DNA of 51,609 nt, taken from a virus (Duplodnaviria; Caudoviricetes). Positions 86 through 27,885 of the stretch are shown here, piece after piece; positions within the stretch are counted from its first letter, which is position 1; the number at the start of each line of letters is the position of its first letter. The notes under the pieces were generated by a model that was not told the origin of the DNA, made no database searches, and saw only the letters and a list, made by a program, of their open reading frames with translations. The stretch covers positions 1 through 51,609 of the IMG/VR virus record IMGVR_UViG_3300005805_000120; one strand, written 5' to 3'. The position numbers and the translations under genes were made by a program.

Positions 86-274
86 GTGACGGTCTCAATG
101 AATATTTATCGTAAATTACTTTTATTCGCCACACGCCGCAACCTTGCAAACTGTTTGATGTTTCTATTCGTCGTAGGCGTTGCGTTGGGTGCTGGTTTAA
201 TATTTCCCCCTGCGGGATTTATCGCTGGCGGTATCGCCTGCGGAATCTATGGGTATCTGTTGGGATCTGAATAA
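86..274 (+). CDS. small membrane protein upstream of portal
   Basis: Two hydrophobic segments; stop overlaps the portal start (TAATG). Confidence 0.6.
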   Translation: MTVSMNIYRKLLLFATRRNLANCLMFLFVVGVALGAGLIFPPAGFIAGGIACGIYGYLLGSE

Positions 275-2484: not shown

Positions 2485-2575
2485 TTTCAGTAAAACACCC
2501 CCAATATACTGAAAGTGTTCCTTTTTTGGCGCTTCAAATGGTTTATTGTTTATAAACCAACATTTTTGGAGAACA

Positions 2576-4693: not shown

Positions 4694-4747
4694 ATAAAAA
4701 AAATACTTTTATGTTGGTTCCATTTGTAGTAAAAAGAAAACACTAAG

Positions 4748-6567: not shown

Positions 6568-6579
6568 CAAGGAGAGGCG

Positions 6580-8421
6580 ATGATTAAATCGTCTCGTGCT
6601 TTTGACGCAAACGAGAGAGTAGCGGAGTACCGAAAATCTGTTTCGGTCGTTCATGACAACCTTTTGCTTTTCAAGGGGTTCCTCGGTCCTACCATAAAAG
6701 ATAAACCAGGTTTGGGCTCTGTTGGCGTGAGAGCGGCGAGAGCCGCAGGTGTGATAGTCGATGCTGCTGGCAAATTGAGGTGTCCACCTGGCACCCCGAA
6801 CGCCAACCAATTCACCGACATGCAAATGTCTAACTGTTTAGTTCCTAGTGCCGAAGCAGCAGCGAAAGATATTGCCTCTCTTGCAGGGAAAATGATTGAT
6901 GGCGCTAGAGGCATTCTAAAAAGTCAAAAACTCCGAAATGGAGCGAAAGCAACAGCGATGGCGGCTTTGCAAGCATACGATTACATGACAGTTGACGGGT
7001 CGGGAACGTTGACTGATTCAACCTTAATGAGTTTGTTGCTTCTCAGGACAGGAGGCGCTCAAATGCTTGATTTTGCTACAGAATCGCTTCACAAGCGAGG
7101 CAAAATATCCGACAAGAGAAAAGAACAATTGGAATCAATTGCGGCAAAAATTAAACGCGACAGTTTAGAGGATGCAAAAAATTTTCTAGCGTCTACATTC
7201 AAGAGACGCAAAGACAAAAAAAAGAACCCAAAGGTTGACCCTCCTACCGTCAAGACCCCAAGCGGATTCAAAAAAGGAAATGGTGCTTTAGCAAAGGCTA
7301 AGGAATTTGAGCCAACTGTCGGCATAGCGGATGCAAACGGCAACAATATTGCCCGAGATTTGCCTAGTGTAAAACCCGAAATTGATACAGCAGAGAAGGC
7401 TTCTGCTCATATTGCCAACGGTGGAAAAATAAATGAACTAGGTGACACGGTCGTCCTAGACGCAATCCTTGACAATATTGATGTCTATGACTCAGAAGGA
7501 AACGTTACTGAAATTAAACGATTTGAATTGCTTGGAAGTGGCGGCGGTGTTGTCGGGATGAACCGCTTGCGAGATAGGCAAACTGGACAACTTTTGGGTG
7601 TCAAATATGCTTCACGACCGTCAATGTGGGATGACAATGTTCCGCACAGCAAAGCCCCTCTGAGCAAAGGTAGAGCAACTCGCTGGTTTGAGCCAGTTCA
7701 AGAAGTTTTAGCAACCTCAATAACCGAGGAATTCGGGTATCCCGCCTCCTCGCTTCGTGTTGTTCAAACTGCACCCGAGTCAGCATCTATGGGCGTCATC
7801 ACCGATTTGGTTCACAACTCTTACGACGGGAAAATACTTTCCGCAGGTCCTGAACAACTTGAGAAAACCGATACAAGAAAACTTTTACACATGCAGGTGA
7901 TGGACGTTGTTTTGGCTAACGGCGACAGACATGATGGGAATGTTCTTTTCAGTGAGACATCTGAAGGAATGGACGCTGTGCCAATCGACCATAGTTTCAT
8001 CTTTCAAGTTTTTGATTTCAATGACACAGCCGAAAAATATGCCCCAATGATTAGCACTGGCACATTGGGGTCAGAACTCAGCCGACGTCACGGTTCTAGC
8101 GTTGACGAGCATGCCAAACTGGTTGCAGATGCAGGAAAAGTTCTAGAAGATGTCAAAAAGATTGACGTTGACTCTTTGGAAGACAGGCTAAAACGTCAAC
8201 TTGAAGAGACGATGTCTGATAGGAATCTCATCGGACAATACAGTCTCACACCAGAAATACTAGAACAACTTGAAGAATTGCGAACAAATTTGACTAAATC
8301 AGTGCAACGCTTGAGAGAAATACAGGGCATGACCCCAAAACAGTTGGCTGACATAATCGTCAAACCGCCTAAGCCAAAAGCCGATTCCGCATTGGAAAAT
8401 ATTGTTGCGAGTGTCGTATGA
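6580..8421 (+). CDS. effector 1: C-x17-C motif protein with a C-terminal HipA/PI3-PI4-kinase-like domain
   Basis: RCPPGTPNANQFTDMQMSNC; Gly loop GSGGGVVG, VKY, DRHDGN catalytic loop, PIDHS; AAGGAGAGG RBS. Confidence 0.8.
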   Translation: MIKSSRAFDANERVAEYRKSVSVVHDNLLLFKGFLGPTIKDKPGLGSVGVRAARAAGVIVDAAGKLRCPPGTPNANQFTDMQMSNCLVPSAEAAAKDIASLAGKMIDGARGILKSQKLRNGAKATAMAALQAYDYMTVDGSGTLTDSTLMSLLLLRTGGAQMLDFATESLHKRGKISDKRKEQLESIAAKIKRDSLEDAKNFLASTFKRRKDKKKNPKVDPPTVKTPSGFKKGNGALAKAKEFEPTVGIADANGNNIARDLPSVKPEIDTAEKASAHIANGGKINELGDTVVLDAILDNIDVYDSEGNVTEIKRFELLGSGGGVVGMNRLRDRQTGQLLGVKYASRPSMWDDNVPHSKAPLSKGRATRWFEPVQEVLATSITEEFGYPASSLRVVQTAPESASMGVITDLVHNSYDGKILSAGPEQLEKTDTRKLLHMQVMDVVLANGDRHDGNVLFSETSEGMDAVPIDHSFIFQVFDFNDTAEKYAPMISTGTLGSELSRRHGSSVDEHAKLVADAGKVLEDVKKIDVDSLEDRLKRQLEETMSDRNLIGQYSLTPEILEQLEELRTNLTKSVQRLREIQGMTPKQLADIIVKPPKPKADSALENIVASVV

Positions 8422-8732
8422 GATACGCCCTAGTAACCCCAATGGAAGAGGTTTCAGGTATTCCTTACGTTCTGCTTGAAAACGACCAAGGCATTTTTGC
8501 TGTAATAGCACCCGACACCAAATTCTCGTCCAGACTCAACAATCAACTGCTTTTAAGTAAAAGAGATACCATTGAAAAAGCAACTACTGGAATGTCGTAT
8601 CATAGTATTAGCACCAATATTTTGGACGACAACAATATTGCGCTTTTAAGACAGTTGGCTAGAAAATGGAAAACAACCCTGCCCGCTCCACTTGCGGAAC
8701 CTGAAGCACCAAAAGAATCGGCAAAAAAATGA
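8418..8732 (+). CDS. small partner of effector 1 (putative immunity protein)
   Basis: ATGA overlap with the kinase stop; similar to 13219-13521. Confidence 0.55.
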   Translation: MRYALVTPMEEVSGIPYVLLENDQGIFAVIAPDTKFSSRLNNQLLLSKRDTIEKATTGMSYHSISTNILDDNNIALLRQLARKWKTTLPAPLAEPEAPKESAKK

Positions 8733-10468
8733 GCAATCACCTCAACCAAGGTTTTGAATATTTTGCACGAAAACTTCGTATGTCCATGCGCGAAAAAACG
8801 AAAATGAAAAGAACAAATATCGCATTGGGACAGGAACTAATTTTTGACCCCGAAAATGCGAAAACAAAATTTATTTTCACCAAAGGTTCACAGGTCAGGA
8901 AGACGAGACTCAATGGGGATAGAGACCTTCTAAATTTCAAAGCAAAACTTTATATGAAGTCTCGCACTTCTCGTTTGGGTTCAGAAACATTTGTTGGCGA
9001 CGAAACAAAGCGTGGCGGTTTGGGCAAATGGTTTGATGAGGAATGGGTTGACATTTCTCGCCCCAAAAAAGGTGGGGGCTTTGAACCGTGCGGTCGTGGA
9101 GATGCCAACACGGGAAAGTATCCCAAATGCGTAAAAAAGTCTAGGGCAATGAACATGACTGCCGAGCAGATTGCTTCCGCTATTAGAAGGAAACGCCGAG
9201 CCGAGAACTCTGAAACCCGTGTGGACAAGAAACCTATCAATGTGCCCACAATGAAGTCTGATGTAGTCACATCTTGCTGTGGAGAAAACGAAATTAAGGG
9301 TGCTAATATTCCAACCGACCCAGATCTTTACGCAAGGGTAAAAGCAGAAGCAAAAAAGAAATTCAATGTTTACCCGTCTGCTTACGCAAATGCTTGGCTG
9401 GTTCGTGAATATAAAAAGCGTGGCGGAGGATACCGAGTAGAGAAAGATGACTCGGAAGGATTAGAAGAAAAAGCAGGACTTGTCGGTTCAAGTAGTACTG
9501 CTGGTCGTGTAGCACAATCAATCGGCTCCGCCCTGACACCAGGCAACATTTCTCCAATCACCTCGCCTATTCGTTCAAGATTGTATGGCGCTCTGATTCC
9601 TGGCGGCGGGCAAGGAGTTCTCAGTAGGTTAAAACCAAACCGCAGAAGACAAGCACGATGCCCTGCTGGTTTTGAATTCGGTGGAAGATTCACAGACAAT
9701 CGTTTTTCTACTTGCGGTGCACAACTATTCGAAATACCAGGTCCTTTAGAACTTATTAGACAGGCAGCGCGCCCAATAGCGGCACCGAAAATACCACAGG
9801 CAAGACAAGAAAACCTTTCAGAGGTATTAGAGGGTGCGCCAAACCAAGCAAGAACAATCCAGATTCAACGCATGGCGCAGATACCAAGAACAGGCGCATT
9901 TCAAAAAGATAAATTTAATCGTTCCGTTGCTGATTCAATCAAACTACTCAAAGGTGCGCCGAAAGGCGAGGGAAGAATGATTCGTCGAGACGGAGTAATT
10001 TTGCGCCCTGTTGTTCCTTCCTCTATTCTGCGTTCGTTCAGCGAAAACCCTGACATGGAAGACGGCGCAATGGTGCGTGCTATCCAGTTACCTGCCGATA
10101 TTGGAGCCGACGATTTGGCGTTATTGGGTGGTCCATCAATGAGCAAAATTGCTTTTGTAGCCCCCAACGGTGTGACTATCAGCATTGAACGCTCACGACC
10201 ATTCACAATTGGAGAAAAACGCAAGTTTCCAAGAATGATTAACTCGTTGGCAGAGTCAAGCAACAAAGACAACATCATCAAAAATATTGAAGATTTTGCC
10301 AAAGAGTCTCAAGGGGCATTCAAATTCAATGCCGACACTGCTGGAATCCCAGACGCATTACAACTTGTTGAATACACAGGTCTTGACGGCGTAAAGCGAA
10401 CCACCACACGATGGATATACGAAACTTTTCTTAAACAAGATTTGGCGAAAGCACGAAAGAAAAAATAA
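8729..10468 (+). CDS. multi-module head-associated protein (DUF5872-like modules, C-x17-C motif, degenerate JAB-like C-terminus)
   Basis: GLGKWFDEEWVDI..CGR..YPKC; PTDPDLYARVK..YPSAYANAWLVREYKKRGGGY; RCPAGFEFGGRFTDNRFSTC. Confidence 0.65.
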   Translation: MSNHLNQGFEYFARKLRMSMREKTKMKRTNIALGQELIFDPENAKTKFIFTKGSQVRKTRLNGDRDLLNFKAKLYMKSRTSRLGSETFVGDETKRGGLGKWFDEEWVDISRPKKGGGFEPCGRGDANTGKYPKCVKKSRAMNMTAEQIASAIRRKRRAENSETRVDKKPINVPTMKSDVVTSCCGENEIKGANIPTDPDLYARVKAEAKKKFNVYPSAYANAWLVREYKKRGGGYRVEKDDSEGLEEKAGLVGSSSTAGRVAQSIGSALTPGNISPITSPIRSRLYGALIPGGGQGVLSRLKPNRRRQARCPAGFEFGGRFTDNRFSTCGAQLFEIPGPLELIRQAARPIAAPKIPQARQENLSEVLEGAPNQARTIQIQRMAQIPRTGAFQKDKFNRSVADSIKLLKGAPKGEGRMIRRDGVILRPVVPSSILRSFSENPDMEDGAMVRAIQLPADIGADDLALLGGPSMSKIAFVAPNGVTISIERSRPFTIGEKRKFPRMINSLAESSNKDNIIKNIEDFAKESQGAFKFNADTAGIPDALQLVEYTGLDGVKRTTTRWIYETFLKQDLAKARKKK

Positions 10469-13222
10469 ATGCAGAAAAACGAAGTCAACTTCAAGGCTTT
10501 GACTTTTATCTCGGAACAAACCGCAAGCACTTTTAACTACGAAGTGAAAGGTGTAAGGGCTTTATGGGATCCAAGTCTTTCCATACCAGGCACTAATCGC
10601 CGTGGTGGTTGGCGTTGTCCTGTTGGCACTCGTTATGGTGGACAAATTACCGACAGATTCGGGCGTTCTTGCGGTTGGGGTGTGGCTCGTCGTATCGCAA
10701 ACCAAATTGCCGACATCGGCGAACGGCTAGAAAACATTGACGACCGAAAACGCAATAATCGTCTTGCTAAACGTAATGCTCGCATGCAACGTTTTTTGGC
10801 TCGTCAAGAGAAACCTGGTTTGCTTGAGCGTGGTGCAAGAAACATTGCCGAAGCACTTGAGGGTGGACAGACGCCACGACAAGTTAGACCCGCCGCACGC
10901 CCTGCTCGGCGTCAACCATTGGGAGGAATGATTGACCCAAATACAGGACGTGTTATCCCCCTAAGACCAGACCCCGTCATAGAACAGGCACGAGAGGTAA
11001 TAGAACAAGCGAGAAATCCTCGTGCCCCTCGTAGGAGAAGAGGAAATCTTCGCGAATCAGAACAGCGAAGAATGGATAGAGAACTTGTACAACCTGGCGC
11101 ACCTCGCACGGGCGAACCACCTAAACCTAACGCTCCAAGACGTCGGCGCAGAGCCGCTGCGCAACAGGGGGCAAAGCGAACTGTACGCAGAAAGCCTGAA
11201 GCAGATTTTGTTGATGGCGCTCCACCAGAACCGACAAGAGTTCCACGCAGAAAACCTGCACCAAAGCCAGCAGAGCCACCAAAACCTTCAACACCAATAC
11301 CAAGTCCCCCGACCTGGAATCCGACGGCAGAAGCAGCAGCCCAAGCGCCACAGTTCAATTTGCCAAGTCAGCCGCCTCCCGCACCAAACCCTCCTTCACC
11401 AGATTTAGGCGGAAGTTTGCCAGACGAGCGTTCAATAAGAAATGTTCGCAACCGTTTTCGTGAAAGAGGACTTCCAGATACTGCTTACTGGCGTGACAAC
11501 GATTTTCCAGAAGGTGAAGAAAAAGCAGAACTTGAAAGAAGGTTCGGGCGCTATTACGGAAAAGATAATAAACGTAATGCACGAGGCGATTATGTGAATC
11601 AGAAAATCTCTGCCAACCAAGGTGGTTTGGCGAACAGAGGTGGCGCTCGTAATCCTGCTCCAGAGTCTCCACCTGCCCCACCCGCACGTCCAGCAGGTCC
11701 GCCTCCAGTTCGTAAAGTTTTCAATGCCGAAGGCGAATTTAATAAACCTGAAGATGCGGACATGCTTCAAATAGTGCTTGAGGACTTAAATGGTTTTGAG
11801 CCAAACGCATTTAATAATTTGAGGGGTCTAAATAGAGATGCTTTGGTTGAAAAACAAAATAAATTGAACGCAGACCAAAAGGAAATTGACGAAAGATTTG
11901 AAGCAGCGCTTACTGCGTGGTCTAGAGATAAAGATGTGGGATTTCAAACTCGTGCAGAGGCGCGTGCCAACATAGCAAGAGCGCACATTGCTCGTGAACG
12001 CAATAGAATTGAACGAGAAGCCGTAAATCTTCGCCTTATTGAAGTTGACGCAGGGATTGCTTTTCAACCCAAACAAAGAAATCCATTACCAGAAGCAGCA
12101 CAACGGGTAAGGGTTCCGCAAGCACCAGTCCCTGATATTCCAGAACCAGAAGGCGGATTTGATGTTTCTCCACCTTCCCCCAAAGCAGATCATTCGCCAG
12201 AAAAACTTGGTCGCCTTGGTGAGGATGGTTTGCCAGAAATTAAAAATGTTCCCATTGGGAACAAAGGAATAAATACAAAAGCAGATGCGATTGGGCACTT
12301 GGAACGAGGCGGCGATTTGGCTGATGTTCCAGACGATTTGCTTGCTGACGCATTGGCTGGGGCTACTGGTCGATTTGAGAAAACAGATGCTGGTGGTGGA
12401 GTGAACGCAGCACAAATCAACGACAACATGTTCCTGTTTAAAGACAGGGTTACTGGCAAAAAATATTTCCTGAAATACACGAATGGTGCAGTGGCGGAAA
12501 ATGAAGATCTTCACGAACTCGTGGGCAATAACCTCGCAGGTCGATTGGGTATGCCGATTGGCGCAGTCCGAACAGACGGAAAACAAAAAGGCAGAGGAAA
12601 CGCACCTCACTCAGAAGGTAGGGCTATCGTTTTTGAGCACGCTGCGAACTATGCGGAAGGCGAAATTCAGAGCCCGAGAGATGTAGGAAATATGGCTCGT
12701 ATCAAAGCGTCTGACCGAGTTCGTGCAACCCTTTTGGATTTCATCATAGTTAACAGAGACCGCCACCAAGGGAACTTCTTTGTGGCGACTGACGCCAACG
12801 GGAACAAACGATTTGTCCCCATTGACCCGTCTTTGGGATTTGACGTGAATTGGGGTGGACGAGACTTTCAAGGTTTTGACGGAGATGATGCAGGTTTCAA
12901 CGCATGGATGAATCACAATTATGGTGGTGGAAGAAATCAAATGCTCAATTCGCTTCGGGCTCAGTTCCAGAACCAAGAACTAAGCAAGCGAGAGGTGATT
13001 GCCGCCATCGCAGATGTTCAAAGGTCTATTCGCGAAGCAGAACGCAAAAACCCATATATGAACGTTGTCAATGATGCCCTCAAAGCGGGAGGAGATGGAA
13101 CCCAACAGCCACGGTCTGGAGATAACGCTCGTGAGCGAATCGGTGTCCGCCCCATGAGAAAAATGAAGTACATCACCGATGTCGACCCAAGCAGACTCGC
13201 CGACTTGATACTAGGATTGTGA
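10469..13222 (+). CDS. effector 2: conserved N-terminal domain, Pro/Arg linker, HipA/PI3-PI4-kinase-like domain
   Basis: WDPSLSIPGTNRRGGWRCPVGTRYGGQITDRFGRSCGWG; DAGGGVN, YFLKY, HELVGNNLAGRLG, NRDRHQGN, PIDPSLGF. Confidence 0.82.
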   Translation: MQKNEVNFKALTFISEQTASTFNYEVKGVRALWDPSLSIPGTNRRGGWRCPVGTRYGGQITDRFGRSCGWGVARRIANQIADIGERLENIDDRKRNNRLAKRNARMQRFLARQEKPGLLERGARNIAEALEGGQTPRQVRPAARPARRQPLGGMIDPNTGRVIPLRPDPVIEQAREVIEQARNPRAPRRRRGNLRESEQRRMDRELVQPGAPRTGEPPKPNAPRRRRRAAAQQGAKRTVRRKPEADFVDGAPPEPTRVPRRKPAPKPAEPPKPSTPIPSPPTWNPTAEAAAQAPQFNLPSQPPPAPNPPSPDLGGSLPDERSIRNVRNRFRERGLPDTAYWRDNDFPEGEEKAELERRFGRYYGKDNKRNARGDYVNQKISANQGGLANRGGARNPAPESPPAPPARPAGPPPVRKVFNAEGEFNKPEDADMLQIVLEDLNGFEPNAFNNLRGLNRDALVEKQNKLNADQKEIDERFEAALTAWSRDKDVGFQTRAEARANIARAHIARERNRIEREAVNLRLIEVDAGIAFQPKQRNPLPEAAQRVRVPQAPVPDIPEPEGGFDVSPPSPKADHSPEKLGRLGEDGLPEIKNVPIGNKGINTKADAIGHLERGGDLADVPDDLLADALAGATGRFEKTDAGGGVNAAQINDNMFLFKDRVTGKKYFLKYTNGAVAENEDLHELVGNNLAGRLGMPIGAVRTDGKQKGRGNAPHSEGRAIVFEHAANYAEGEIQSPRDVGNMARIKASDRVRATLLDFIIVNRDRHQGNFFVATDANGNKRFVPIDPSLGFDVNWGGRDFQGFDGDDAGFNAWMNHNYGGGRNQMLNSLRAQFQNQELSKREVIAAIADVQRSIREAERKNPYMNVVNDALKAGGDGTQQPRSGDNARERIGVRPMRKMKYITDVDPSRLADLILGL

Positions 13223-13521
13223 ACATGAGGGCAGCAATTATCACTTCCAAAGACGATTCAGTTAAATCGTCGCCCTTGGTTATAGTTGAGGACGACAAGG
13301 GAATTCTCAAGTATTACTCGCAAAACCGTGAGGCGGACAAACTTGACAACGAGAACTTTTTGTATGCCAAAAAGAATTCTCCGAAAATAGCAAACTTGGA
13401 GCACATGTTGCACGGGTATTCATACTTTGATACTCAGGTTTTTGAGTACGAGGGTTCTGGCAAAGAGAAGATTGATAATATGCTTTTGTCCATTGGACAC
13501 AAAAAACTAGACACCAAATAA
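13219..13521 (+). CDS. small partner of effector 2 (putative immunity protein)
   Basis: GTGA overlap with the kinase stop (or ATG 13225); similar to 8418-8732. Confidence 0.55.
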   Translation: MNMRAAIITSKDDSVKSSPLVIVEDDKGILKYYSQNREADKLDNENFLYAKKNSPKIANLEHMLHGYSYFDTQVFEYEGSGKEKIDNMLLSIGHKKLDTK

Positions 13522-13645
13522 TATATTTACACTAGGTCGTTTTAAATATCAACGCCCTTTTAGTGATAACATTTTAATGTGGCGATATAGCGACTGCGAT
13601 ATTTGCAGGGCTCGCTGAATGTCTTTCAACTGTGGAAAGTAAACA

Positions 13646-16417
13646 ATGAACCTAGTTTTCATTATCAAAAACCGTGACAACACACCATTTATGGTTGTTA
13701 GAACCACGCCCAACGGCTCAACTTTTGAGCCAATGTCGGAACCAGCCAAAGAACTTGCAGGCATCTTGCGTCAAGAATACGGGAAAACACCAATTACAAA
13801 ACCTGAACTAGTTCAATCAATGGACGCATCAAAAATCATTGAAGGACCTAGCCCAGCAGGGACAGCATCACAAAAGAAAGTCATGAGCCTGTCTCTTGAA
13901 AAAACAGAACTGCCAAAACTTCCAGTTATCTCCATTTCTGAAGTCCTTTTGTCTGAATTCTCCAATGAAGAATTCAAAAATGTTTTAACATTCAAAGCGT
14001 CATCGTTCATATCTGACCAAACTCGTTCTTCGGCACATTTTGAAATCAAAGGTGTACGTGCTGTTTGGGATCCAGGTTTGGCAATTCCTGGCACAAATCG
14101 TCGTGGCGGTTTTAGATGCCCTGTTGGCACAAGATACGGTGGACAAATCACAGACCGATTCGGGCGTTCCTGTGGATGGGGTGTAGCGAGGCGTATTGCC
14201 AACCAAATTGCTGACATTGGGGAACGATTGGAACAACGAGATGACGACAAGCGTAAGCGTCGCCTTGACCGTCGTAACGCAAGAATGATTAGACGACTTG
14301 GTGGCAACGCTGGAGAAGGTCGTGTTGAAGGTGGTTTGCGTAATATCGCCCGACGCCTTGACGGTGGAAGTGAAGCAACCCCAAAACCGCCAAGACAACG
14401 AGTAGGTCGTGGTGAAGGTAGGGAATTTGCACAAAGAGTATTTGACGAAAGCACTATCGGAAGAATCATCAACGATGTTCGGCGACGACCCCAGAATGCC
14501 GAACAAGAAGATGTCGAGTCACAAGCACCGTCTGTACGCGTCCCACGCAACAGGCGACGAGATGTCACACAAGAAACAGAACCGACTCCAAGACCCGCAC
14601 GACGACCACGCCCACAAGTCGCCCCACGACCAAGGAACGTTGATGTGCTCACACCACAAGACGCATCCGACGCAGGAGAAACAGAAGATTTCAAACCTTA
14701 CGTATTACGAAAATACGACGAGTATGCAAAACGAGTCCGAGAAATTCGGCTGGCTGGCGGTAATGCGGGAATGTTGACTCGCCGTGAATGGTACGCAATC
14801 AACAAAGAAAATCTTCGTGAGGCTTGGAAAGACGCTCACGGTCGTAACGCACCACAAGATTTTGAACCACCAACACCACAGGCTCGTCGCCCACGAAACA
14901 ACCGTCGTCGCCGTAGGCAGTCAACAGCACAAGGCGCAGGGCGTTCTGCTACTCGTAGACCAACACCTGATGATGTTCCCGAACCACCCCCTGCGAGACC
15001 CGTAAGACCAGCACGACCTCGTCGTCCTCGTCGTGACCCCAACTTCGCGGGTGGTGCAGGTTTTGTTACACCTGGTGATGGAGGCGGAGCGCCGCCAGAA
15101 GTACGACCACCAGCAGCCCCACCGTCAGGCATCTCAGCCGATTTCCCAAGTGCGCCAGAGCCATCAACACCAACACCAAAACCAAAGGCTCCACGAGGTG
15201 GAAGAAAGAAGCAATCGCCACCACTTAATCGTGCAAAAGACAGACACGAAACAGGTTTGCCAAAATTGGAAAACGGAAAGTTTGATGAAGTTCCAGTTGG
15301 CAACAAAGGGATTAACACCAAAGCACAAGCACTTGCATACAATGGTCCGCTGGGTGATATTCCAGACAAATTCCTTGCTGATGTTATGGAAAAGCGTTCC
15401 GACTTTATTCAAGACCGAGGCGGAGATACGAACCCGAGAAGCGCACTAGCAAAAGCGATGTTCGGCGCTAATGGGGCTACAACTCCCGAACAATTACGAG
15501 ACCTCAGGGCAACAGTTACTCGCCTAAGAAAATCACGAACAAAAAACAACGCATTAACTGCTCGAGACAAGGAAACACTGAAAAGACTTAAAGAATCGGG
15601 AGTGAACTACATAAGTTTCTATGCGGGAACTGGTGGAGCAAACCCAAGTTTCCATCTTTTCATTGACGATAATGGGAACATGGATGGGCGAGGATATTTG
15701 CTAAAGCCAAGAGACATGAGTTTTGGCAATGGGGCGAATCACGCAGAATTGTTGGGTGCCGTCCTCGCCGAACAAATGGGCTTTGCTCAGGGGCAAGGTC
15801 GAATAATTCCAGGAACTTCATACAATAAAATATTGCTTGAACTCGGTCCTAATTTTGCCGAAGGGCAAGTGGACAATATCGGCAACGTAGCCAACGGCGC
15901 TAACGCTATTAAAGACAAAGAATCTCGTCTTGGTGCCGCTCTGCTAAATGGAATCATGGGGGCTGCGGATAGGCACGCTGGCAACGGAATGATATTTGAA
16001 GGAAATGGCGCATTGCCGATTGACTTTGGTCGCGCTTTTGTTCACCGCAACGATGATGCACCATCACTATTCCGATACATCATGGGTGGTCGGGAATACG
16101 GAGGTATTGATAGGAGCCCCCTTGGAGGATACAAACAGAAATACCAAGAACTAGTACGAGCAGGTAGAACTCCGCAACAAGCAAAGGATGCTTTGCGCAC
16201 CGAATTGAAGCAATCATTAGACCAATGGCGTGCTGGGATGAAAGAAGTGCTTGACAATGGTGTGGCAGACAATTTGGCTGCAAGGTTTGCAAATAACGAC
16301 AATATTGGTGGAGCAAATGTTCGTATTGCCGATAGAAAAGCAAAAATTGGAAGCAGACTTGACATTATGGTTTCAGATGAATTCGTTAATCTTATGATGG
16401 AGGAAATTGGGCGATGA
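13646..16417 (+). CDS. effector 3: N-terminal extension, conserved domain, linker, HipA/PI3-PI4-kinase-like domain
   Basis: Same conserved domain as 10469; GTGGAN, YLLKP, AELLGAVLAEQMG, ADRHAGN, PIDFGRAF. Confidence 0.82.
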   Translation: MNLVFIIKNRDNTPFMVVRTTPNGSTFEPMSEPAKELAGILRQEYGKTPITKPELVQSMDASKIIEGPSPAGTASQKKVMSLSLEKTELPKLPVISISEVLLSEFSNEEFKNVLTFKASSFISDQTRSSAHFEIKGVRAVWDPGLAIPGTNRRGGFRCPVGTRYGGQITDRFGRSCGWGVARRIANQIADIGERLEQRDDDKRKRRLDRRNARMIRRLGGNAGEGRVEGGLRNIARRLDGGSEATPKPPRQRVGRGEGREFAQRVFDESTIGRIINDVRRRPQNAEQEDVESQAPSVRVPRNRRRDVTQETEPTPRPARRPRPQVAPRPRNVDVLTPQDASDAGETEDFKPYVLRKYDEYAKRVREIRLAGGNAGMLTRREWYAINKENLREAWKDAHGRNAPQDFEPPTPQARRPRNNRRRRRQSTAQGAGRSATRRPTPDDVPEPPPARPVRPARPRRPRRDPNFAGGAGFVTPGDGGGAPPEVRPPAAPPSGISADFPSAPEPSTPTPKPKAPRGGRKKQSPPLNRAKDRHETGLPKLENGKFDEVPVGNKGINTKAQALAYNGPLGDIPDKFLADVMEKRSDFIQDRGGDTNPRSALAKAMFGANGATTPEQLRDLRATVTRLRKSRTKNNALTARDKETLKRLKESGVNYISFYAGTGGANPSFHLFIDDNGNMDGRGYLLKPRDMSFGNGANHAELLGAVLAEQMGFAQGQGRIIPGTSYNKILLELGPNFAEGQVDNIGNVANGANAIKDKESRLGAALLNGIMGAADRHAGNGMIFEGNGALPIDFGRAFVHRNDDAPSLFRYIMGGREYGGIDRSPLGGYKQKYQELVRAGRTPQQAKDALRTELKQSLDQWRAGMKEVLDNGVADNLAARFANNDNIGGANVRIADRKAKIGSRLDIMVSDEFVNLMMEEIGR

Positions 16418-16707
16418 TTAAATCAATATGTCTTCTGACTGACCCCAAGGTTCTTCTTTCTTGCGACGGAAAAAAATTTCAGGCGCTAGGCAGTTCGTCT
16501 ATTGCACAGTCGATAAGAGACAGCATGGAAAACGAAGAAGGTGCCTTTTATCAATTCATGAAGAAACCAAAAGAAGATTTTGACCCAGTTAATTACTGGT
16601 TTACATCTTCCATGAATTTTGCTGACGAAGTCCCCCCGAAACCATACAGCGAAGAACTTTTTGAATTGTTAAAAGAAGAATTAGCCATGCTTGAGAAAGA
16701 CAAATAA
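16414..16707 (+). CDS. small partner of effector 3 (putative immunity protein)
   Basis: ATGA overlap with the kinase stop; 97 aa, acidic. Confidence 0.55.
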   Translation: MIKSICLLTDPKVLLSCDGKKFQALGSSSIAQSIRDSMENEEGAFYQFMKKPKEDFDPVNYWFTSSMNFADEVPPKPYSEELFELLKEELAMLEKDK

Positions 16708-16713
16708 AAACAG

Positions 16714-19700
16714 ATGCTTCAGAATGTTGTTGATTTCAAAGCAAAATCTTTCTTAACTGAAAGAAATACCTCGACTATGTCTTATGAGGTGAAGGCTGTT
16801 CGTGCTATTTGGGACCCGAGTTTGTCTATTCCTGGAACGAACCGTCGTGGTGGTTGGCGTTGCCCCGTAGGAACTCGTTACGGCGGACAAATCACCGACC
16901 GTTTCGGCAGGTCTTGTGGTTGGGGTATCGCACGACGAATTGCCAATCAAATTTCTGACATCGGTTCGCGGTTAGAGAGTGTTGATGATGCTCGCAGAGG
17001 TCGTCGTATTGCTCGCCGAGAACGCAGAATTCTTGCTCGCCTAAACGCACAAGAAGGAGGCGCTAGTCGTCTTGAGCGTGGATTGCGAGGGGTTGCGGAA
17101 AGACTAGATGGAGGGGAAGCACCAACTCCTCGTGGAGGACGACGGAGAACAGTAACCGCAAGACCTCCATCGGTTGACGAACCTGAAGCAATTAGCGAAT
17201 CGACACCCGATGCTCCACGCCCACAGCGCAGACGGCGCGCACCTGCTCGTCCTGTTCGTGAAGAAGGAAATCTCCTCGCAGCCGAACCAACAGAAGTTTT
17301 GGAAGAAATGCGTGCAGAGTTGGAAAACGCTACTGGTGGCAGAGACAGCGATGATTACAAGCGAGTAATGGCAGAGTTGAAACGGCGTGAAGCCTCCGCT
17401 CGTCCTGCTCGTAGACGGCAACCAGCAAGGCGTCGTGGCGGAAATCTTCGTGAGTCGGAACAACGAAGAATGGATAGAGAGATTGAAGAGCCAGGCGCAC
17501 CGCGTACTGGTGAAGCACCTGCTCGTCGCCGTCGTCGTGCCGTCGTTGAGGCAACAAACAAGCCAAAAGCACCCGTCCAAAAACCCGAAGCAGTTTTTGA
17601 ACCCAAGGTTGTTAAACCTCGTCGCCCGAAGCCAAAAAGAGAAAATGTTGACATCGGTAACCCGCCAAAAGATTTTCAAGAAGTTGGCATCGGGCGTTGG
17701 AGAAAAGGTGATTGGTATATCGCGGTAGACGCAGAAGGGGACAGACAATTAGGTCTTACCGCAACAGACGGTAGAGGCAACGTCATACAGGTTCGTAATT
17801 TCGATGAACTAGTTAGAAAAATGGAAATTGCTGACCGACAACCACGTCCTCGTCGTCCTCGTCGCAATCCAAACTTTGCGGGAGGCGCTGGTTTTGTGAC
17901 ACCTGGTGATGGTGGAAATCCAAATCCCCCTCAACCAGCAGCGAGACCGCCCGCAGCACCACCTCAACCAAGTCGTCGGAATGAAAAGCGACGAGTGAAT
18001 CTCAATGCGGTTGTAGGTGAGCAAAATTTTGAAAAGTTACTCAAACGTGAGTACATGATTAATGACCGAATAATGATTGTTAATGATGTGCGCAATTTTC
18101 CCAATTACGATGCGGGAAAAATAATCGCAGGAAGATATGCAGAAGGAAGAATAGAGCAAGCCCAAGAGCACTTGCGCAAACTAGATGAGGCAATAGCGAG
18201 GGGCGACATTTCCGAAAATGACTTTATTGAAATGGATATGTTCAATTCAAGACCCGAACGAGTCAGTGTCGCAAGAGTTAAGGAAATCATTGGTAGTTAT
18301 AGAGACGGATTTGAAGAAGTTAGAGATGCGAATCTAGGTCGCAGACGACCAGCAACACCTGCGCCTGCACCTGCGCCTGCGCCAGTTGACCCGATAGACG
18401 CACCATTTCTTACTCCAGACAAAAAAGATGTCAGAAAAGCGCCAGCCGCTCTTAAGTACAAGGCACCAAAAGTTGAAGTAGCAAAATTTTCTGCTCAACA
18501 AGAGGAAGCGATAGAGCGAATACTGGTAGAAATCGCAGATGCAAAAAGATTGAATGAGTTTTCTTTGGCGGTAGACCAAGCAAACTTTTTTCAAAACGAA
18601 GGACGTCAAAACGCTTTAAGAAGTTATCAAAGAAGACTTGCTGAGATTGCGGCAAAATTACGAAATGATCCTGGAGCACGAGTGCCTGCTCGGGTTGATA
18701 ATGAAATCGCTATAGCAAAACAAGCATTGTTGCGCTCGGTTGGCGGTGGGAGCATTGATACCGCTAAAGCAAGACTTGACCAACTAAATAGTCAACTGGC
18801 AGACAAGTTTTCTCGGTTGAGAAAACCCCTCGGTAACGATGCTGAGCGGAAAGAAATTGACCGTGTAAGAACGATGCAGGAAATTGGTTTAATCAAACAA
18901 GAGATGGGAAATTTGGAGGGGGTAATTGCTGTACATGATTTGCTCGATGCCGAGGTGCGCAAAACGGTTGAACGAATTGCCCAAGGTTACGAGTTCAATC
19001 CTGACGCAACCGATATTCCGAAACCGACCCCCGAGACTGTCAAAGCACAAATCAAAGAGCAAATTGCTGGAGCAATTAATCGCAGACAAGGCAAACTTGC
19101 CAAATACCTGAAAGAACGAAACCCACAGGGTGGTGCTCTCTATGAAGATATGACACCAGAAAAATGGCGTGGGTTGTCGTTGTCGCAAAAAGAAGCATAT
19201 TTGAAAGAGGCTTATAGTCACAATTTAATCAAAGGCAAAAACGGAAGATTCTATAATGCCGTTGCGCAAGTTAGGGGAAATTCTATTCAAGTTGTATTCA
19301 ACGAGGTTAACGCCCAAGGACAAATTATTAGAGCACGTATTGGGTCTTCCAGCAGAGAAATAAGCGGCAATTCGGTGTATCAAGCAAGTATGTTTGTCTC
19401 AAGCAAATTAGACAGAGGCGCAGACATCCAAACTATTTATAATCAGCACGCATTTCTATATCTCAGCAAAATGGGTGTCACATCGGCAAGAGTTAACGCA
19501 GCGGATGACGGACAGTATGTTTGGGCTCGAGTCGGTTTCAAAAAATCTGGGGGAGTTGACCGAGCCAGACTGCAGAGTCTTGTATCGGAGATGCGCTTTT
19601 ACGAAGAATTTGGGGCAGGTGGACTCATATCAAATGATGCAGAATATGCACGAATTGCTTCCATCCTGAGACAAGCAGAAGGTGGGACTCGGTTTTATCA

Positions 19701-19875
19701 TCAAGACATTATTTTTGCCATAGATGATGTTGATGATAAGGCGAGAGCAGAATATGTGAAACAATGGTTTAAGAGCAATATTCCGTTTAGCGGAGGGGTT
19801 CTGACTTTTTCTGAGCAAAAAGTTGCGGGAGCAGGAAGAGTGAGGCGACCAAGAGCGCCAAGGGTAAGGGCTTAA
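16714..19875 (+). CDS. effector 4: conserved N-terminal domain, linker, C-terminal GNAT-like domain
   Basis: Same conserved domain; C-terminal DRGADIQ..YLSKMGVTSARVNAADDGQYVWARVGF resembles GNAT motifs A/B. Confidence 0.65.
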   Translation: MLQNVVDFKAKSFLTERNTSTMSYEVKAVRAIWDPSLSIPGTNRRGGWRCPVGTRYGGQITDRFGRSCGWGIARRIANQISDIGSRLESVDDARRGRRIARRERRILARLNAQEGGASRLERGLRGVAERLDGGEAPTPRGGRRRTVTARPPSVDEPEAISESTPDAPRPQRRRRAPARPVREEGNLLAAEPTEVLEEMRAELENATGGRDSDDYKRVMAELKRREASARPARRRQPARRRGGNLRESEQRRMDREIEEPGAPRTGEAPARRRRRAVVEATNKPKAPVQKPEAVFEPKVVKPRRPKPKRENVDIGNPPKDFQEVGIGRWRKGDWYIAVDAEGDRQLGLTATDGRGNVIQVRNFDELVRKMEIADRQPRPRRPRRNPNFAGGAGFVTPGDGGNPNPPQPAARPPAAPPQPSRRNEKRRVNLNAVVGEQNFEKLLKREYMINDRIMIVNDVRNFPNYDAGKIIAGRYAEGRIEQAQEHLRKLDEAIARGDISENDFIEMDMFNSRPERVSVARVKEIIGSYRDGFEEVRDANLGRRRPATPAPAPAPAPVDPIDAPFLTPDKKDVRKAPAALKYKAPKVEVAKFSAQQEEAIERILVEIADAKRLNEFSLAVDQANFFQNEGRQNALRSYQRRLAEIAAKLRNDPGARVPARVDNEIAIAKQALLRSVGGGSIDTAKARLDQLNSQLADKFSRLRKPLGNDAERKEIDRVRTMQEIGLIKQEMGNLEGVIAVHDLLDAEVRKTVERIAQGYEFNPDATDIPKPTPETVKAQIKEQIAGAINRRQGKLAKYLKERNPQGGALYEDMTPEKWRGLSLSQKEAYLKEAYSHNLIKGKNGRFYNAVAQVRGNSIQVVFNEVNAQGQIIRARIGSSSREISGNSVYQASMFVSSKLDRGADIQTIYNQHAFLYLSKMGVTSARVNAADDGQYVWARVGFKKSGGVDRARLQSLVSEMRFYEEFGAGGLISNDAEYARIASILRQAEGGTRFYHQDIIFAIDDVDDKARAEYVKQWFKSNIPFSGGVLTFSEQKVAGAGRVRRPRAPRVRA

Positions 19876-19879
19876 CATC

Positions 19880-20137
19880 ATGAAACTTACGCAAGAACAA
19901 AAAGATTCAATCAGATCTGAACTATTTGCAAAAGTCAAGAATGCCGATGTGCGCTCAAAAATTCTGACCACTGCTTACGGTTATGCAGAGGAAAATGGAA
20001 AAGATGGAGACATTGAATCAATGGTTCTCTACCTTATGGACAACCAAGACAAAGTCAATGAACTGTTTAACGAATATGGGATGTCTATGCCGTACACATC
20101 CGAAGTAGAGCAAGTAACCAAAAAAGATAAAAAATAA
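19880..20137 (+). CDS. small partner of effector 4 (putative immunity protein)
   Basis: Starts 4 nt after the effector stop; 85 aa, helical. Confidence 0.5.
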   Translation: MKLTQEQKDSIRSELFAKVKNADVRSKILTTAYGYAEENGKDGDIESMVLYLMDNQDKVNELFNEYGMSMPYTSEVEQVTKKDKK

Positions 20138-21738
20138 TGGCAGAAGAAAAACCTAATATCGTTTCACGGGAACAGGCTCTTCGTGTCGCACGTATGCTCG
20201 GGTGCCAAGGAGCACATGAACACCCAAACGGTTGGATGCCGTGCGCCTCACATGAAGAGTATGAAGCAATTAAAAAAGGTAAAGAAGAATATCTGAAAGT
20301 TCTTGCCGCCAAGAAAAAGAAGCCTTTGCCAAAGATGGTTCAACGCACTAAGCGTTTGGAAACAAAATCTGATGCGTATTACGAGAACCGTGCCGACGCT
20401 TTATCCATTTCCAAGATTCGTGGTTGTGGTGGTGTTCGTACCGTCATGCTTGCAGGTAAAAGGTATTACACGCCTTGTGACCACAAACCTCGTAAAGGTT
20501 GGGAAAAACTTGACGAGAAACCTATTACAGGTATTGCAACTTTGCCTGGTGGTGGGCTTGTTACTGGTTCATTCTCGGGGAAAAACGCTGAAGACGATGT
20601 AGAGCAAAAGGGTTTTGTTAACTTTGTTAGCCGTTCAACAGACCCCGACACTTTTAGTGACCCTGATTCTGCTCGTATCCGTGCACGCAACCTTGGATGC
20701 ATCGGTATTCGCCGATATACAGCAAGGGATGGAAAACTTGTTTGGATGCCCTGCACAAATGTGTCTGACTACAACCGTGTCACAGGTATCCGAGGAGATA
20801 ACAGCCCTAGGAATAACCCAAGACGACAAGGTTCAGGATTTAAGAAAAAGGCTCTCGGTACGCCTATTGGCTCTTCATCCAGCGGAGGACAGCAGGCGAC
20901 CGATGGTGACGGCGACGGCTATGTTGCGTCAACACCTGGTGGTCCTGATGACACACCTGTAAGAAAAAGAAATCAAGCACCTGCTGTTCGCGGACAGATT
21001 GAGAAGGGGAACATTGACTTAAATAATCGCCCTGTAGTGCGGAATTCGGACGGGAGCATAAGCACTGTACGAAGTATCAGTATCACAGAAGGCAAAGTTA
21101 CTGTTTTGATTCCAACGGTAATCCGCGATAGGAAGGGTCGCGGGAAGGTGGTCAGCGACAGGGATGCGATTCGTCATTATCAAAGAAGCGGTGAGCATTT
21201 GGGAAAGTTTTCTAGTTCTGGTGACGCCGATAGGTATGCGGAACAATTACACAATCAACAGGCGGCGCAATACTCAGGAAAGTCTCTAACCGTAGAAAAA
21301 TCACTGAATACTCTCGTCGGGGGTATGAGCGAAGGTATCGTTTTGTTCAAAGGCGTACCCAAAGCCCGCAAGAAACCGCCAACAGTCACAAGCACAGATA
21401 TCAATAACCTTGCCGTTCGGGTGCGTCAACACAATGCCAAAGCCAAACCTACACAAAGGGCTAACCTGCGAGATCTCAAAAACGTATATCTACGAGGTCT
21501 TAAAGATGGCGATAAAACCTCAGCAAACAAGCGTGTTTCCAAGTTTTTGTCGCTTTTGATGTCCGACAAACCAAAAGATGTCAAATATTTTGATGACAAT
21601 GATTTGCTTCCGCTAGACCACCCATGGCGCAACCGCAAAACAAACAAGAAGCGAGCAGGATTTGACAATGGCGAATACGGAGTCAAGTACGCTGAAAAAT
21701 GTTGCCCACAAGTCGTAAAACGATATCGCGTAAAGTAA
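20137..21738 (+). CDS. multi-module head-associated protein with three GCxG...PC repeats (DUF3721-like)
   Basis: ARMLGCQGAH..WMPC; IRGCGGVR..YTPC; ARNLGCIGIR..WMPC; plus GNIDLNNRPVV and DNDLLPLDHP modules. Confidence 0.65.
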   Translation: MAEEKPNIVSREQALRVARMLGCQGAHEHPNGWMPCASHEEYEAIKKGKEEYLKVLAAKKKKPLPKMVQRTKRLETKSDAYYENRADALSISKIRGCGGVRTVMLAGKRYYTPCDHKPRKGWEKLDEKPITGIATLPGGGLVTGSFSGKNAEDDVEQKGFVNFVSRSTDPDTFSDPDSARIRARNLGCIGIRRYTARDGKLVWMPCTNVSDYNRVTGIRGDNSPRNNPRRQGSGFKKKALGTPIGSSSSGGQQATDGDGDGYVASTPGGPDDTPVRKRNQAPAVRGQIEKGNIDLNNRPVVRNSDGSISTVRSISITEGKVTVLIPTVIRDRKGRGKVVSDRDAIRHYQRSGEHLGKFSSSGDADRYAEQLHNQQAAQYSGKSLTVEKSLNTLVGGMSEGIVLFKGVPKARKKPPTVTSTDINNLAVRVRQHNAKAKPTQRANLRDLKNVYLRGLKDGDKTSANKRVSKFLSLLMSDKPKDVKYFDDNDLLPLDHPWRNRKTNKKRAGFDNGEYGVKYAEKCCPQVVKRYRVK

Positions 21739-21879
21739 CCCCAAGGGGGGGTTGCATTTCTGATACTACTTTGATGTTATTCTCGTAATACAGCAAATGT
21801 AACTGACTAGGTGCTTACCGAAGTCTTCGAAATAAAAAATAAGTAACCACCAACAATCAATTCACCAGGAGTGAAAATC

Positions 21880-23184
21880 ATGTCATTTGACAATAGTCGT
21901 TTAACTGAACTTCAAAGCGCAATGCGCGCCAAGATGGCAGAAAATAAGACAATCGCAGACAACTTCAAAATTGAAGATGGAACTGTGGTTGTTTCCGCAG
22001 AACAGAAGACAGCCTTCGATAAGAACATGGCTGACATCCGTGAAATCAAGGGTCTCGTTGAGAGCCTTGAGGCAATGCGAGATGCAGACAAGTGGGCTTC
22101 GGAGCCACAGGATTCTGTCGCACAGGCTTCCGCCTACGCAACTTCAGAATTGCAGAATGCACTTCAGCAAGTTCGTTCCAAGACCATCGGCGAAGCATTC
22201 CTTGCTTCGGCGGAGTTCAAGTCGTTGCTTGCCAGCGGGTCAGCAAACATGCCAGCACCATACAAGAGTGATTACAACGTGAAAGACTTGTACTCGGCAC
22301 TCCCAACTGGCACGCCTGGCTCGTTTGGAACCATCCAACGCGATGCAATGGTCATCCCTCCAATGCGTACCAAGCGTGTTCGTGACTTGTTCCCAAGCCG
22401 CACCACGACTGCCGCAATCATTGAGTACTTCCGCATGACGGGCTTCACCAACAACGCAGCAGCAGTCGCTGAGCGTTCGGGTGCCGCCTTCGCAGCCAAG
22501 CCACAGTCGTCCTTCACCTTCGTTGGTGAACAGGCTCCTGTTCGCACCTTGGCTCACTGGGAAGCCGCACACCGCAATGTTCTTGCTGATGAGCCACAGT
22601 TGCGCTCAATCATCGACAACGAGTTGATGTACGGTCTTCGCCTGCAGGAAGATGCACAAATCCTGAACGGTTCGGGAACTGGTGAGAACCTCACTGGTAT
22701 CTTGAACACCGCAGGTGTGCAGACTTACAACTGGTCGGATGGCACATACTCGGCAACTGCTGGTATGAGCGACACCAAGGCAGACGCAGTCCGCCGTGCC
22801 GCAACCCTTTCCTTCTTGGCTTACTACGAGCCATCGGGCATCGTTCTTAACCCGAACGATTGGGAAGACATCGAACTCAGCAAGGACGGCAACGGCGCTT
22901 ACGTCGTGGCGGTCTCTGTTGCGATGGGTGGCGAACAGCGTTTGTGGAGAATCCCAGTCGTGGATACCCCAGCAATTGCTGAAGGCACGGCACTTATTGG
23001 CGCATTCGGTACGGGAGCACAAATCTACGACCGTGAATCGCCAAGCATCCGAATCAGCGAACAGCACGCAGACTTCTTCGTGCGTAACGCAATCGTAATT
23101 CTTGCCGAGCAACGCCTCGCTCTCGCTGTGAAGCGACCAGAGTCGTTCGTGAAGGTAAGTTTTGATGCGGCTCCATCAGCCTAA
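21880..23184 (+). CDS. major capsid protein, HK97 fold
   Basis: N-terminal coiled-coil delta domain; EDAQILNGSGTGENLTGIL, IVLNPNDWEDIEL, RLWRIPVV, FVRNAIVILAEQRLALAVKRPESFV; AGGAG RBS. Confidence 0.95.
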   Translation: MSFDNSRLTELQSAMRAKMAENKTIADNFKIEDGTVVVSAEQKTAFDKNMADIREIKGLVESLEAMRDADKWASEPQDSVAQASAYATSELQNALQQVRSKTIGEAFLASAEFKSLLASGSANMPAPYKSDYNVKDLYSALPTGTPGSFGTIQRDAMVIPPMRTKRVRDLFPSRTTTAAIIEYFRMTGFTNNAAAVAERSGAAFAAKPQSSFTFVGEQAPVRTLAHWEAAHRNVLADEPQLRSIIDNELMYGLRLQEDAQILNGSGTGENLTGILNTAGVQTYNWSDGTYSATAGMSDTKADAVRRAATLSFLAYYEPSGIVLNPNDWEDIELSKDGNGAYVVAVSVAMGGEQRLWRIPVVDTPAIAEGTALIGAFGTGAQIYDRESPSIRISEQHADFFVRNAIVILAEQRLALAVKRPESFVKVSFDAAPSA

Positions 23185-23201
23185 TCACTGATTAATTCAT
23201 A

Positions 23202-23240
23202 AAGCCCCCGCTCCGACCGCAAGGTTAGGGCGGGGGTTTT
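23202..23240 (+). terminator. intrinsic terminator after the major capsid gene
   Basis: AGCCCCCGC...GCGGGGGTT stem followed by a T-tract. Confidence 0.85.
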
Positions 23241-26201: not shown

Positions 26202-26445
26202 TTTTCAATGCTCGTGCACATATTTTATCCCATTGTTCTGGGTGGTTGTCCTTGACCCATTTAATTGTCAACTGTGAACGCTTGTTGGCAACAATTTGAT
26301 GGAATCTTGCCTGTTCTTTACCAACACCTGTTTTTCGGTAGGCGCGCATATATTCCGCGGCGGCTTTTCTGCATTTAGGGCACCTACATTTTAGATTCGT
26401 ATAGGTTGCGTAAAGCCCGTGTACTATTTCGTCTGCCATGACCAA
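26164..26445 (-). CDS. small Zn-binding protein
   Basis: HG..TY..KCRCPKCR motif common in actinophage proteins. Confidence 0.6.
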   Translation of the reverse strand: MVMADEIVHGLYATYTNLKCRCPKCRKAAAEYMRAYRKTGVGKEQARFHQIVANKRSQLTIKWVKDNHPEQWDKICARALKIVEKQNEEGKNV

Positions 26446-27396: not shown

Positions 27397-27885
27397 TTAC
27401 CAACCCCTCACCGTGTATTCATTGCGTATGTCCTGAAGGGTGCTTCCCAATTTGAAATATTTGTCTAGATGTTCAACTATCAAAAGATTTGGTGCGAATG
27501 GTCGTTTTCCGACACCGAAATAGCCTGTTTCTTGGGGGTGATTTTTCTTCAGGGCAAGAAATGAAACAACTGGGTCATTACCGTTTGCTATTGCCACACC
27601 CCATGCTGTTGCTGTGGAACGAGAAATACCCGCATGGCAATGAACCAATAATTTCGGTACACCTGCACCGAATTCAATAAGTTCAACCACATTCTCATAT
27701 GACGGTCCGCCATGCTTGGATGATATGGTGTCACTAAATTGAACCACCTTATGAACGGGGTGTTTAAAGTCTCGGACTTCTTCTTGACGGGGTCCTGCCG
27801 TTAGGACTGCGTCGTATTCAAAACACTGTTCCCGTGCTTCCTCCAAATTTCTAACGGTCGGAAGCAGTATTAGCGATGTCTTCAT
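27397..27885 (-). CDS. protein tyrosine/dual-specificity phosphatase-like protein
   Basis: VHCHAGISRS (CX5R) P-loop, FSD acid loop, PN motif. Confidence 0.88.
   Translation of the reverse strand: MKTSLILLPTVRNLEEAREQCFEYDAVLTAGPRQEEVRDFKHPVHKVVQFSDTISSKHGGPSYENVVELIEFGAGVPKLLVHCHAGISRSTATAWGVAIANGNDPVVSFLALKKNHPQETGYFGVGKRPFAPNLLIVEHLDKYFKLGSTLQDIRNEYTVRGW

Follow-up and report, generated by a model that had tools for sequence, protein, structure and literature searches.

A polymorphic array of kinase and acetyltransferase-like genes with small partner genes in the head operon of a likely actinophage

What does a phage do with five large, mostly enzyme-tipped genes placed between the gene for its prohead protease and that for its major capsid protein? 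The question is raised by the virus record IMGVR_UViG_3300005805_000120, which we analysed over its whole 51.6 kb (the window) and whose left part is an HK97-type head operon. A preliminary description, made from the letters alone, had taken the array in this operon for a new system of kinase and acetyltransferase effectors, loaded into the capsid through a non-MuF domain, injected to modify host targets, and neutralized during assembly by small neighbouring genes. We found this interpretation to be partly supported. The array is real and polymorphic, and we favour, with a probability of about 0.6, the reading that its large proteins (carriers) are writer enzymes loaded into the virion, accompanied by cognate inhibitors and by eraser enzymes, and injected to modify an actinobacterial host. 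This reading builds on the layout of the array, the folds of its tips, intact kinase catalytic residues, the exchange of tips together with their small genes as cassettes, and the co-occurrence of a deacetylase with the GNAT tip.

The array, its tips and their small partners

The head operon runs from a portal-MuF fusion through the S78 protease, a PepSY protein and the effector array to the major capsid gene (Table 1). All eight open reading frames (ORFs) of the four large-and-small units described earlier were confirmed (613 + 104, 917 + 100, 923 + 97 and 1053 + 85 aa), and the two genes of each unit overlap or adjoin. The number of carriers had been given as four; there are five, because a further gene without a small partner, carrier H, also has the shared Cys module with its motif RCPxG..TD..C. 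Nor is the motif always N-terminal as first described, since the module of carrier 3 begins at residue 133, after a conserved extension, and the motif of carrier H lies at residue 310. A near-identical domain followed by a Pro/Arg-rich linker was indeed found in three carriers, with a module of 68 aa and basic linkers that reach 44% Pro+Arg per 50 aa; in the DNA, a 246-nt stretch is present three times in the array at 68-73% identity. The Cys module had no Pfam, PHROG or NCBIfam match and no usable Atlas match. Its AlphaFold model was of low confidence (pLDDT 60, pTM 0.30) and the fold search was uninformative (best Z 3.8), which does not imply a new fold. When 2500-22400 is divided into 30 bins, every bin is covered by contigs from the sequencing runs examined (four of four, from four studies, one run being possibly that of the source sample), and an independent contig reaches from 10264 to 21094. 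An assembly artefact can therefore be dismissed. Within the population, these four runs gave no sign of strains that had exchanged tips.

Three of the five tips belong to the HipA/PI3K-like atypical kinases, one has a GNAT fold and one is unassigned. All three kinases carry the kinase motifs, and the first scores above the PF00454 cut-off. Across 23 aligned tips the Lys, Glu, D-R-H-x-x-N and Asp residues are invariant, and the loop and Asp are kept in 107 of 114 kinase-cluster tips. In Pfam and Atlas the window kinases fall near HipA_2, HipA_C and PI3_PI4 kinases (Atlas TM 0.59 to HipA_2/HipA_C clusters), and one Atlas match is a 947-aa 'phage head morphogenesis' cluster. Both the fold and the catalytic residues are thus present, as the preliminary description had recognized; the nearest families are mixed as to substrate (protein versus lipid or small molecule). 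Its GNAT-like assignment of the fourth tip also agreed with our model (pLDDT 85.7) and with three fold searches, all of which gave acetyltransferases as best matches apart from unnamed phage proteins, including 50 of 50 listed VIA rows that are acetyltransferase-type or GNAT-like chains. Single scores are modest (Foldseek E 1e-3, best VIA Z 7.7) but the lists are concordant, and the modelled tip has a GNAT fold. The ratio of non-synonymous to synonymous substitutions (dN/dS) indicates purifying selection on the GNAT tip, and all computable values for tips and partners lie between 0.08 and 0.22.

We then compared the tips across relatives. Two viral-contig scans gave 41 and 80 loci on partly shared contigs, and a module profile gave 521 clusters (50% identity) at E ≤0.001; we read the best 150 of them. 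Clustering of 268 C-termini separated kinase (114), GNAT (45), H-type (30), HExxH (19), pseudokinase (11), DUF3626-like (10 + 3) and ParB-like (7) tips, plus small groups and fragments; motifs, together with PHROG or weak Pfam matches, are the basis for calling tips HExxH, ParB-like or RelA-like. Slot 1 alone holds a kinase, HExxH, DUF3626-like, ParB-like or RelA-like tip in relatives. One relative matches the window at 67-99% (mostly 85-97%) in all covered 300-nt bins except 15300-16800, and the replaced stretch is the third tip with its partner. Searched from the tips, the Cys module stands on 76 of 91 GNAT and 52 of 55 kinase homologs, a DGDGDG-type module precedes three of each set, and 12 GNAT homologs begin within linker-like sequence. 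The module, therefore, does not always carry the same C-terminus, the case that had been named as refuting: a conserved N-terminal module is combined with recombining tips of several unrelated classes, as in polymorphic toxin systems. The repertoire is much wider than first listed. Some relatives have more than one effector domain in a carrier (kinase + HExxH in L021; NUDIX + a weak kinase match in P0140), and distant ones have several modules and enzymes fused into proteins of 2000-4500 aa. In the five relatives that are at least 90% complete (128-151 kb), all module copies (2-5) lie within ~10 kb and are confined to the head region. At L003:4813-7898 a ParB-like tip is inserted into a kinase gene, of which a degraded remnant is left downstream, so that the replacement is seen midway. 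This remnant is the one candidate orphan cassette, and there is none in the window. A 3429-aa carrier at L105:9506-20079 ends in a RelA/SpoT-like domain common to MuF-type proteins and is followed by a 94-aa ORF.

The small genes follow the tips. Among unique complete carriers, with a limit of 200 aa and truncated cases set aside, a small ORF stands downstream of 49 of 50 kinase, 12 of 12 GNAT and 9 of 9 HExxH carriers (70 of 71 scorable; listed partners are 66-155 aa). Of the 30 H-type carriers, which end in an unassigned domain or a pseudokinase, only 1 has such an ORF. After long polyvalent slot-1 carriers the next gene is often large. In 82 units, partner identity tracks tip identity with r=0.86 (0.91 among 49 kinases) and module identity with r=0.24; on a tree of the 49 kinases, partner families require 7 changes (minimum 7), and N-terminal type 8 (minimum 2). 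These comparisons indicate that tip and partner are co-inherited as cassettes, in line with the tip-specific partners first proposed. The small ORFs are under purifying selection, with dN/dS of 0.11-0.22 in six of eight pairs, the other two being saturated. None of the pseudokinases (0 of 11; HHalign 98% to kinases) keeps the catalytic loop, and because these dead tips lack partners an inhibitor role is favoured. The partners look cytoplasmic, since none of the 82 has a hydrophobic segment, and they gave no convincing Pfam match, HipA-coupled antitoxin families included.

Two further conserved segments of the array were noted. The ~105-aa extension of carrier 3 (13646-13960) is highly conserved, occurs in one carrier type (32 unique copies) and is retained even where the upstream pseudokinase is gone. 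We rejected the idea that it is a fused member of the partner 1/2 family (HHalign 2%; 37% to one other ORF). The 189-aa domain of carrier H (9884-10450), to which a pseudokinase is added in some relatives, is conserved in 58 of 277 carriers without a database match; a suspected resemblance to JAB-like domains found no support in searches.

Table 1. Coordinates and assignments of the array and related genes in the window
Feature	Positions	Strand	Description and evidence
Portal protein	274..2484	+	C-terminal MuF domain (~2197-2460); PF04860 E 1e-48; PF04233 above cut-off
Prohead protease	2546..4693	+	HK97 type (S78)
Carrier 1	6580..8421	+	613 aa; slot-1 type Cys module (motif 6778-6837), HipA/PI3K-like kinase (catalytic Asp codon 7924)
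Small partner 1	8418..8732	+	104 aa; same family as partner 2; predicted kinase inhibitor
Carrier H	8729..10468	+	579 aa; DUF5872, motif 9656-9715, conserved unassigned C-terminal domain, no small partner
Carrier 2	10469..13222	+	917 aa; module 10541-10744, Pro/Arg linker, kinase tip ~12200-13219 (catalytic Asp codon 12758)
Small partner 2	13219..13521	+	100 aa (98 aa from ATG at 13225, the start agreeing with relatives)
Carrier 3	13646..16417	+	923 aa; N-terminal extension ~105 aa, module 14042-14245, linker, kinase (catalytic Asp codon 15968)
Small partner 3	16414..16707	+	97 aa; family specific to carrier 3 kinase clade
Carrier 4	16714..19875	+	1053 aa; module 16786-16989, linker, GNAT-fold tip ~18985-19848
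Small partner 4	19880..20137	+	85 aa; family only behind GNAT tips (12/12 units)
Head-module protein	20137..21738	+	533 aa; short modules (DUF3721, DGDGDG-type motif)
Major capsid protein	21871..23184	+	HK97 type; Lys-Asp kept at predicted scaffold junction in 14/14 listed copies
Deacetylase	26424..27392	-	Zn-dependent, motifs intact; predicted eraser; PF00850 E 3.6e-18
Phosphatase-like protein	27397..27885	-	HCX5R, motifs intact; predicted eraser; PF00782 E 0.004, below cut-off

Candidate erasers and loading into the head

About 6 kb from the array lies a deacetylase gene with a phosphatase-like gene beside it, neither of which was in the preliminary description. Of 38 records, 15 are matched by the deacetylase family, and the GNAT profile matches exactly these 15. 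Of the five near-complete genomes, three have a GNAT tip among their carriers, and the deacetylase is confined to those three. Overall, 19 of 44 records (window included) have both, 25 have neither and none is discordant, many of the negatives being fragments. The 29 records with the neighbouring phosphatase comprise 19 with both deacetylase and GNAT tip and 10 with neither. This linkage suggests that the GNAT tip is active. A second, weak GNAT match (E 9e-5) was also seen beside the deacetylase in one record (G013:C1:12910-13191). Among the 24 records that have a kinase match below 1e-10, 23 contain the phosphatase; it is also present in one fragment without kinase slots, and in none of the remaining 13 records, most of them distant or incomplete. 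The kinase-phosphatase link thus appears weaker than the deacetylase-GNAT link and confounded by lineage. It has a parallel in MuF-Apk2 systems, in which Aph1 adjoins IapK (PMC12226406).

Several observations bear indirectly on how the carriers might reach the head. Predicted Lys motifs ahead of the module are similar to the Lys-Asp kept at the scaffold junction of the capsid protein; they number 13 versus 2 and 7 versus 0 in head versus other window proteins, with patterns chosen post hoc, and 87 versus 50 in shuffles across 186 carriers. The middle domain of the prohead protease also heads 8 of 277 module carriers among relatives. Capsid-targeting propeptides are described for T4 (PMC9026906), and in Gordonia phage GMA2 the product of orf10, which combines a short module, a Lys-rich linker and a 2H-like C-terminus (Pfam matches below cut-off), was detected in virions at 29.4% coverage with its first peptide near residue 140 (PMC4524720 Table S5). 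Homology between its module and the Cys module was rejected (HHalign ~1%), so GMA2 orf10 serves only as an analogy. We predict from these patterns that the Cys module is a head-targeting signal. The earlier statement that it is not MuF holds for the carriers: a profile built from the portal-fused MuF, which remote types could escape, found none in 277 carriers or 146 tip homologs, and PF04233 was absent from the window carriers and the relatives scanned. The portal of the operon, however, does have a fused MuF domain.

In the reading we favour, the carriers would be produced late alongside the head proteins, and a cognate partner of 85-105 aa would silence each active tip, so that the producing cell goes on assembling particles. 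The module would target the carrier into the head, and the HK97-type protease may trim the Lys-flanked segment before the module. With its basic and flexible linker, the carrier could sit among the DNA and unfold for ejection. In the new, partner-free cell the tips could phosphorylate or acetylate host proteins, for takeover or to block defence. The oppositely transcribed deacetylase and phosphatase may later strip these marks, with an effect on timing, and may also protect broadly against the payloads that related, co-infecting phages bring in. Tip exchange would reflect an arms race, fought either with hosts or with rival phages. A bolder picture, which we put forward only tentatively, gives lytic freshwater actinophages a full warfare kit of writers, inhibitors and erasers, with the Cys, DGDGDG-type and GMA2-type modules as interchangeable loading tags for a shared tip pool. 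There the Cys module would be a capsid zip code that loads exchangeable kinases and acetyltransferases into an HK97-type head, the mini-proteins would confer allele-specific protection, and the deacetylase and phosphatase would reset marks and shield the cell from rival payloads.

Several results weigh against the favoured reading. No protein of the family has so far been seen in a virion, and the head-region enzymes of phage GMA6 (orf12-15), whose capsid is 47% identical to that of the window, are not among the three virion proteins detected in shallow data. The Cys module has no match among cultured phages and, as noted, none to the GMA2-type module. The Lys cleavage motif was picked after inspecting the data and is not the top one in an unbiased count. 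Proteins of 600-1050 aa, and of several thousand in relatives, must traverse the tail, and no sheath gene matched in the five near-complete relatives. Mere adjacency could also yield the tip-partner correlation, and p-values are inflated because the rows are related. Record G015 has a kinase and no phosphatase match. The co-occurrence of the deacetylase with the GNAT tip depends on 3 changes in a capsid tree of 25 rows (23 of the 44 records and two outgroups); strong branches force 2 of these, for at least two independent joint changes. Finally, 8 of 12 aligned GNAT tips, the window's included, carry Asp in the acetyl-CoA loop, at a position where Gly is usual in the canonical GNAT motif.

The same chemistry is common in toxin-antitoxin systems, where HipA-like and GNAT toxins have small antitoxins; TacT and AtaT are among the VIA matches, a weak PADLOC match was obtained (PDC-M03A, E 3e-5), and the missing virion detections would fit as well. 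The genes could accordingly be late-expressed toxin-antitoxin or superinfection-exclusion cassettes that stay unpackaged, with the module as an oligomerization or recombination anchor. We consider this unlikely. The array is strictly within the head operon, a domain of the protease gene is fused to the module in the carriers mentioned above, the RelA-like tip of relatives is common to MuF-type 'head morphogenesis' proteins (phrog_7625, E 2e-21), and basic linkers of 600 aa would be needless for a pure toxin-antitoxin role.

Packaging might instead serve the phage itself, the tips modifying structural or DNA-bound phage proteins in assembly and the small ORFs acting as folding or loading chaperones. 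Co-transcription of the carriers with head genes is consistent with this, and the partner-less carrier H (dN/dS 0.06-0.07) and the carrier 3 extension look structural. A core assembly step would hardly allow one slot to take chemistries as unrelated as kinase, HExxH, ParB-like, DUF3626 and RelA-like, and carriers with dead tips are without partners; we regard self-modification as slightly less likely again. Very improbable, in our view, is that the carriers are Trojan-horse toxins against protist grazers that eat infected cells. The nearest solved sequences to the kinases are PI4K and Fam20, with weak E-values, and HCX5R phosphatases are able to act on phosphoinositides. Such a Trojan-horse role has been proposed for freshwater actinophage ADP-ribosyltransferases (PMC6802176). 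The cognate cytoplasmic partners and the erasers imply a target within the bacterial cell, and none of the five window carriers has a hydrophobic or translocation segment.

The phage, its host and neighbouring genes

The host is likely actinobacterial and the phage likely an actinophage, because the window has two WhiB genes, which are also found in all five near-complete relatives, and the best cultured capsid matches are from Brevibacterium and Gordonia phages (46-47% identity). At least half of the window's words were present in 19 runs from seven studies, all lake, river, freshwater or aquatic metagenomes; one RNA run had 7% of them. Scans of GTDB gave no match at first and then two contigs from one metagenome-assembled genome (MAG). 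No tyrosine integrase (PF00589) or resolvase (PF00239) matched in the five near-complete relatives, so the phage is probably lytic, although it may lysogenize without integration.

Promoter and terminator counts showed no excess over chance. A terminator-like hairpin (21735-21755) directly follows the gene for the 533-aa head-module protein, and short-module head proteins (DUF3721, DUF6321, DGDGDG-type) are also found across 20137-25610. A staphylococcal-nuclease-like gene (24030-24437) stands directly after the capsid gene. Further along, several methyltransferase-like genes cluster at 32235-33701 and 40099-44259 together with a ParB protein; only the first gene and the ParB gene of this cluster were scanned. 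Among relatives, the prohead protease frame of an apparently phage contig from a MAG (L123:1-7734) is at least 2577 aa long, an apparent very long extension, and three records (G032, G036 and G037) have a single in-frame TAA within the major capsid match.

Comparison with known systems

We found no description of the Cys module, the array or the eraser pairing in the literature, most subscription papers and the polyvalent-protein supplements being outside reach. The label 'new system' is nevertheless too strong, because variable effectors that are packaged in the head, with small immunity genes downstream, are the described principle of MuF toxins and polyvalent proteins. MuF toxins share with the array a head-module site near the portal, a conserved N-terminus, a variable enzyme tip and a small downstream ORF of <150 aa (PMC5576092), and the MuF toxin Apk2 has a two-layer immunity of a binder and a product-erasing enzyme (PMC12226406). 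The RelA-like tip even matches the C-terminus of a MuF-type family. Unlike MuF toxins, the array has no MuF in its carriers, four to five full-length tandem paralogs rather than one gene, and erasers in a separate block with opposite transcription. Kinase and GNAT tips dominate it, whereas the word 'kinase' is absent from the text of the MuF survey (PMC5576092). The array would act like MuF toxins and polyvalent proteins but does not belong with the former, because it lacks a MuF domain and its near-complete relatives show no sign of temperate life.

Polyvalent proteins use the same toolkit (kinase, GNAT, metallopeptidase, ParB, ART, 2H, NUDIX) and are proposed to be packaged in the head (PMC5512222), and the distant relatives of the array resemble them in their fused multi-enzyme carriers. 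In contrast, each window carrier has one recognized tip with a cognate partner, carrier H aside, and the C-terminal lobe, lost in the polyvalent kinase clade, is retained by the array kinases. A common short N-terminal signal on divergent payloads, protease trimming and injection, as proposed for the array, are features of T4 internal proteins and Alt (PMC9026906). They differ in their T4-type head, Glu-specific protease, small payloads and lack of cognate immunity genes, and the signal of the array is only predicted. The T7 kinase is an expressed gene product of a different kinase type and is not part of a polymorphic array in a head module. It resembles the proposed action of the array in that phage phosphorylation is directed against host defences, as a broad anti-defence factor (PMC13645617). 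Among cultured phages, those with the nearest capsids are GMA6, Chidiebere and DalanDe; the C-terminus of their portals gives a MuF-like match, and genes for 2H, ART and HExxH enzymes lie between their portal and capsid genes. Together with GMA2 they have a short Lys-preceded module, in DalanDe also heading the protease, but no Cys module, and their own module is not detectably homologous to it.

MuF toxins, with their small downstream genes and product-erasing immunity (PMC5576092, PMC12226406), are tied to temperate phages, and the loading of protein cargo outside T4 and giant phages is poorly known. The Cys-module family offers a candidate loading tag for HK97-type heads, together with many kinases and acetyltransferases that are still unstudied and have predicted cognate inhibitors. 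Its genetics also hint that the phage itself later erases injected modifications. It becomes possible to test directly whether injected protein modifications are timed by phages, and whether the abundant freshwater Actinobacteria are infected by lytic phages that fight one another with allele-specific payloads. Collectively, the unclassified module, the tandem paralogs and the coupled, predicted eraser enzymes place the array as a new variant among head-associated polymorphic effectors.

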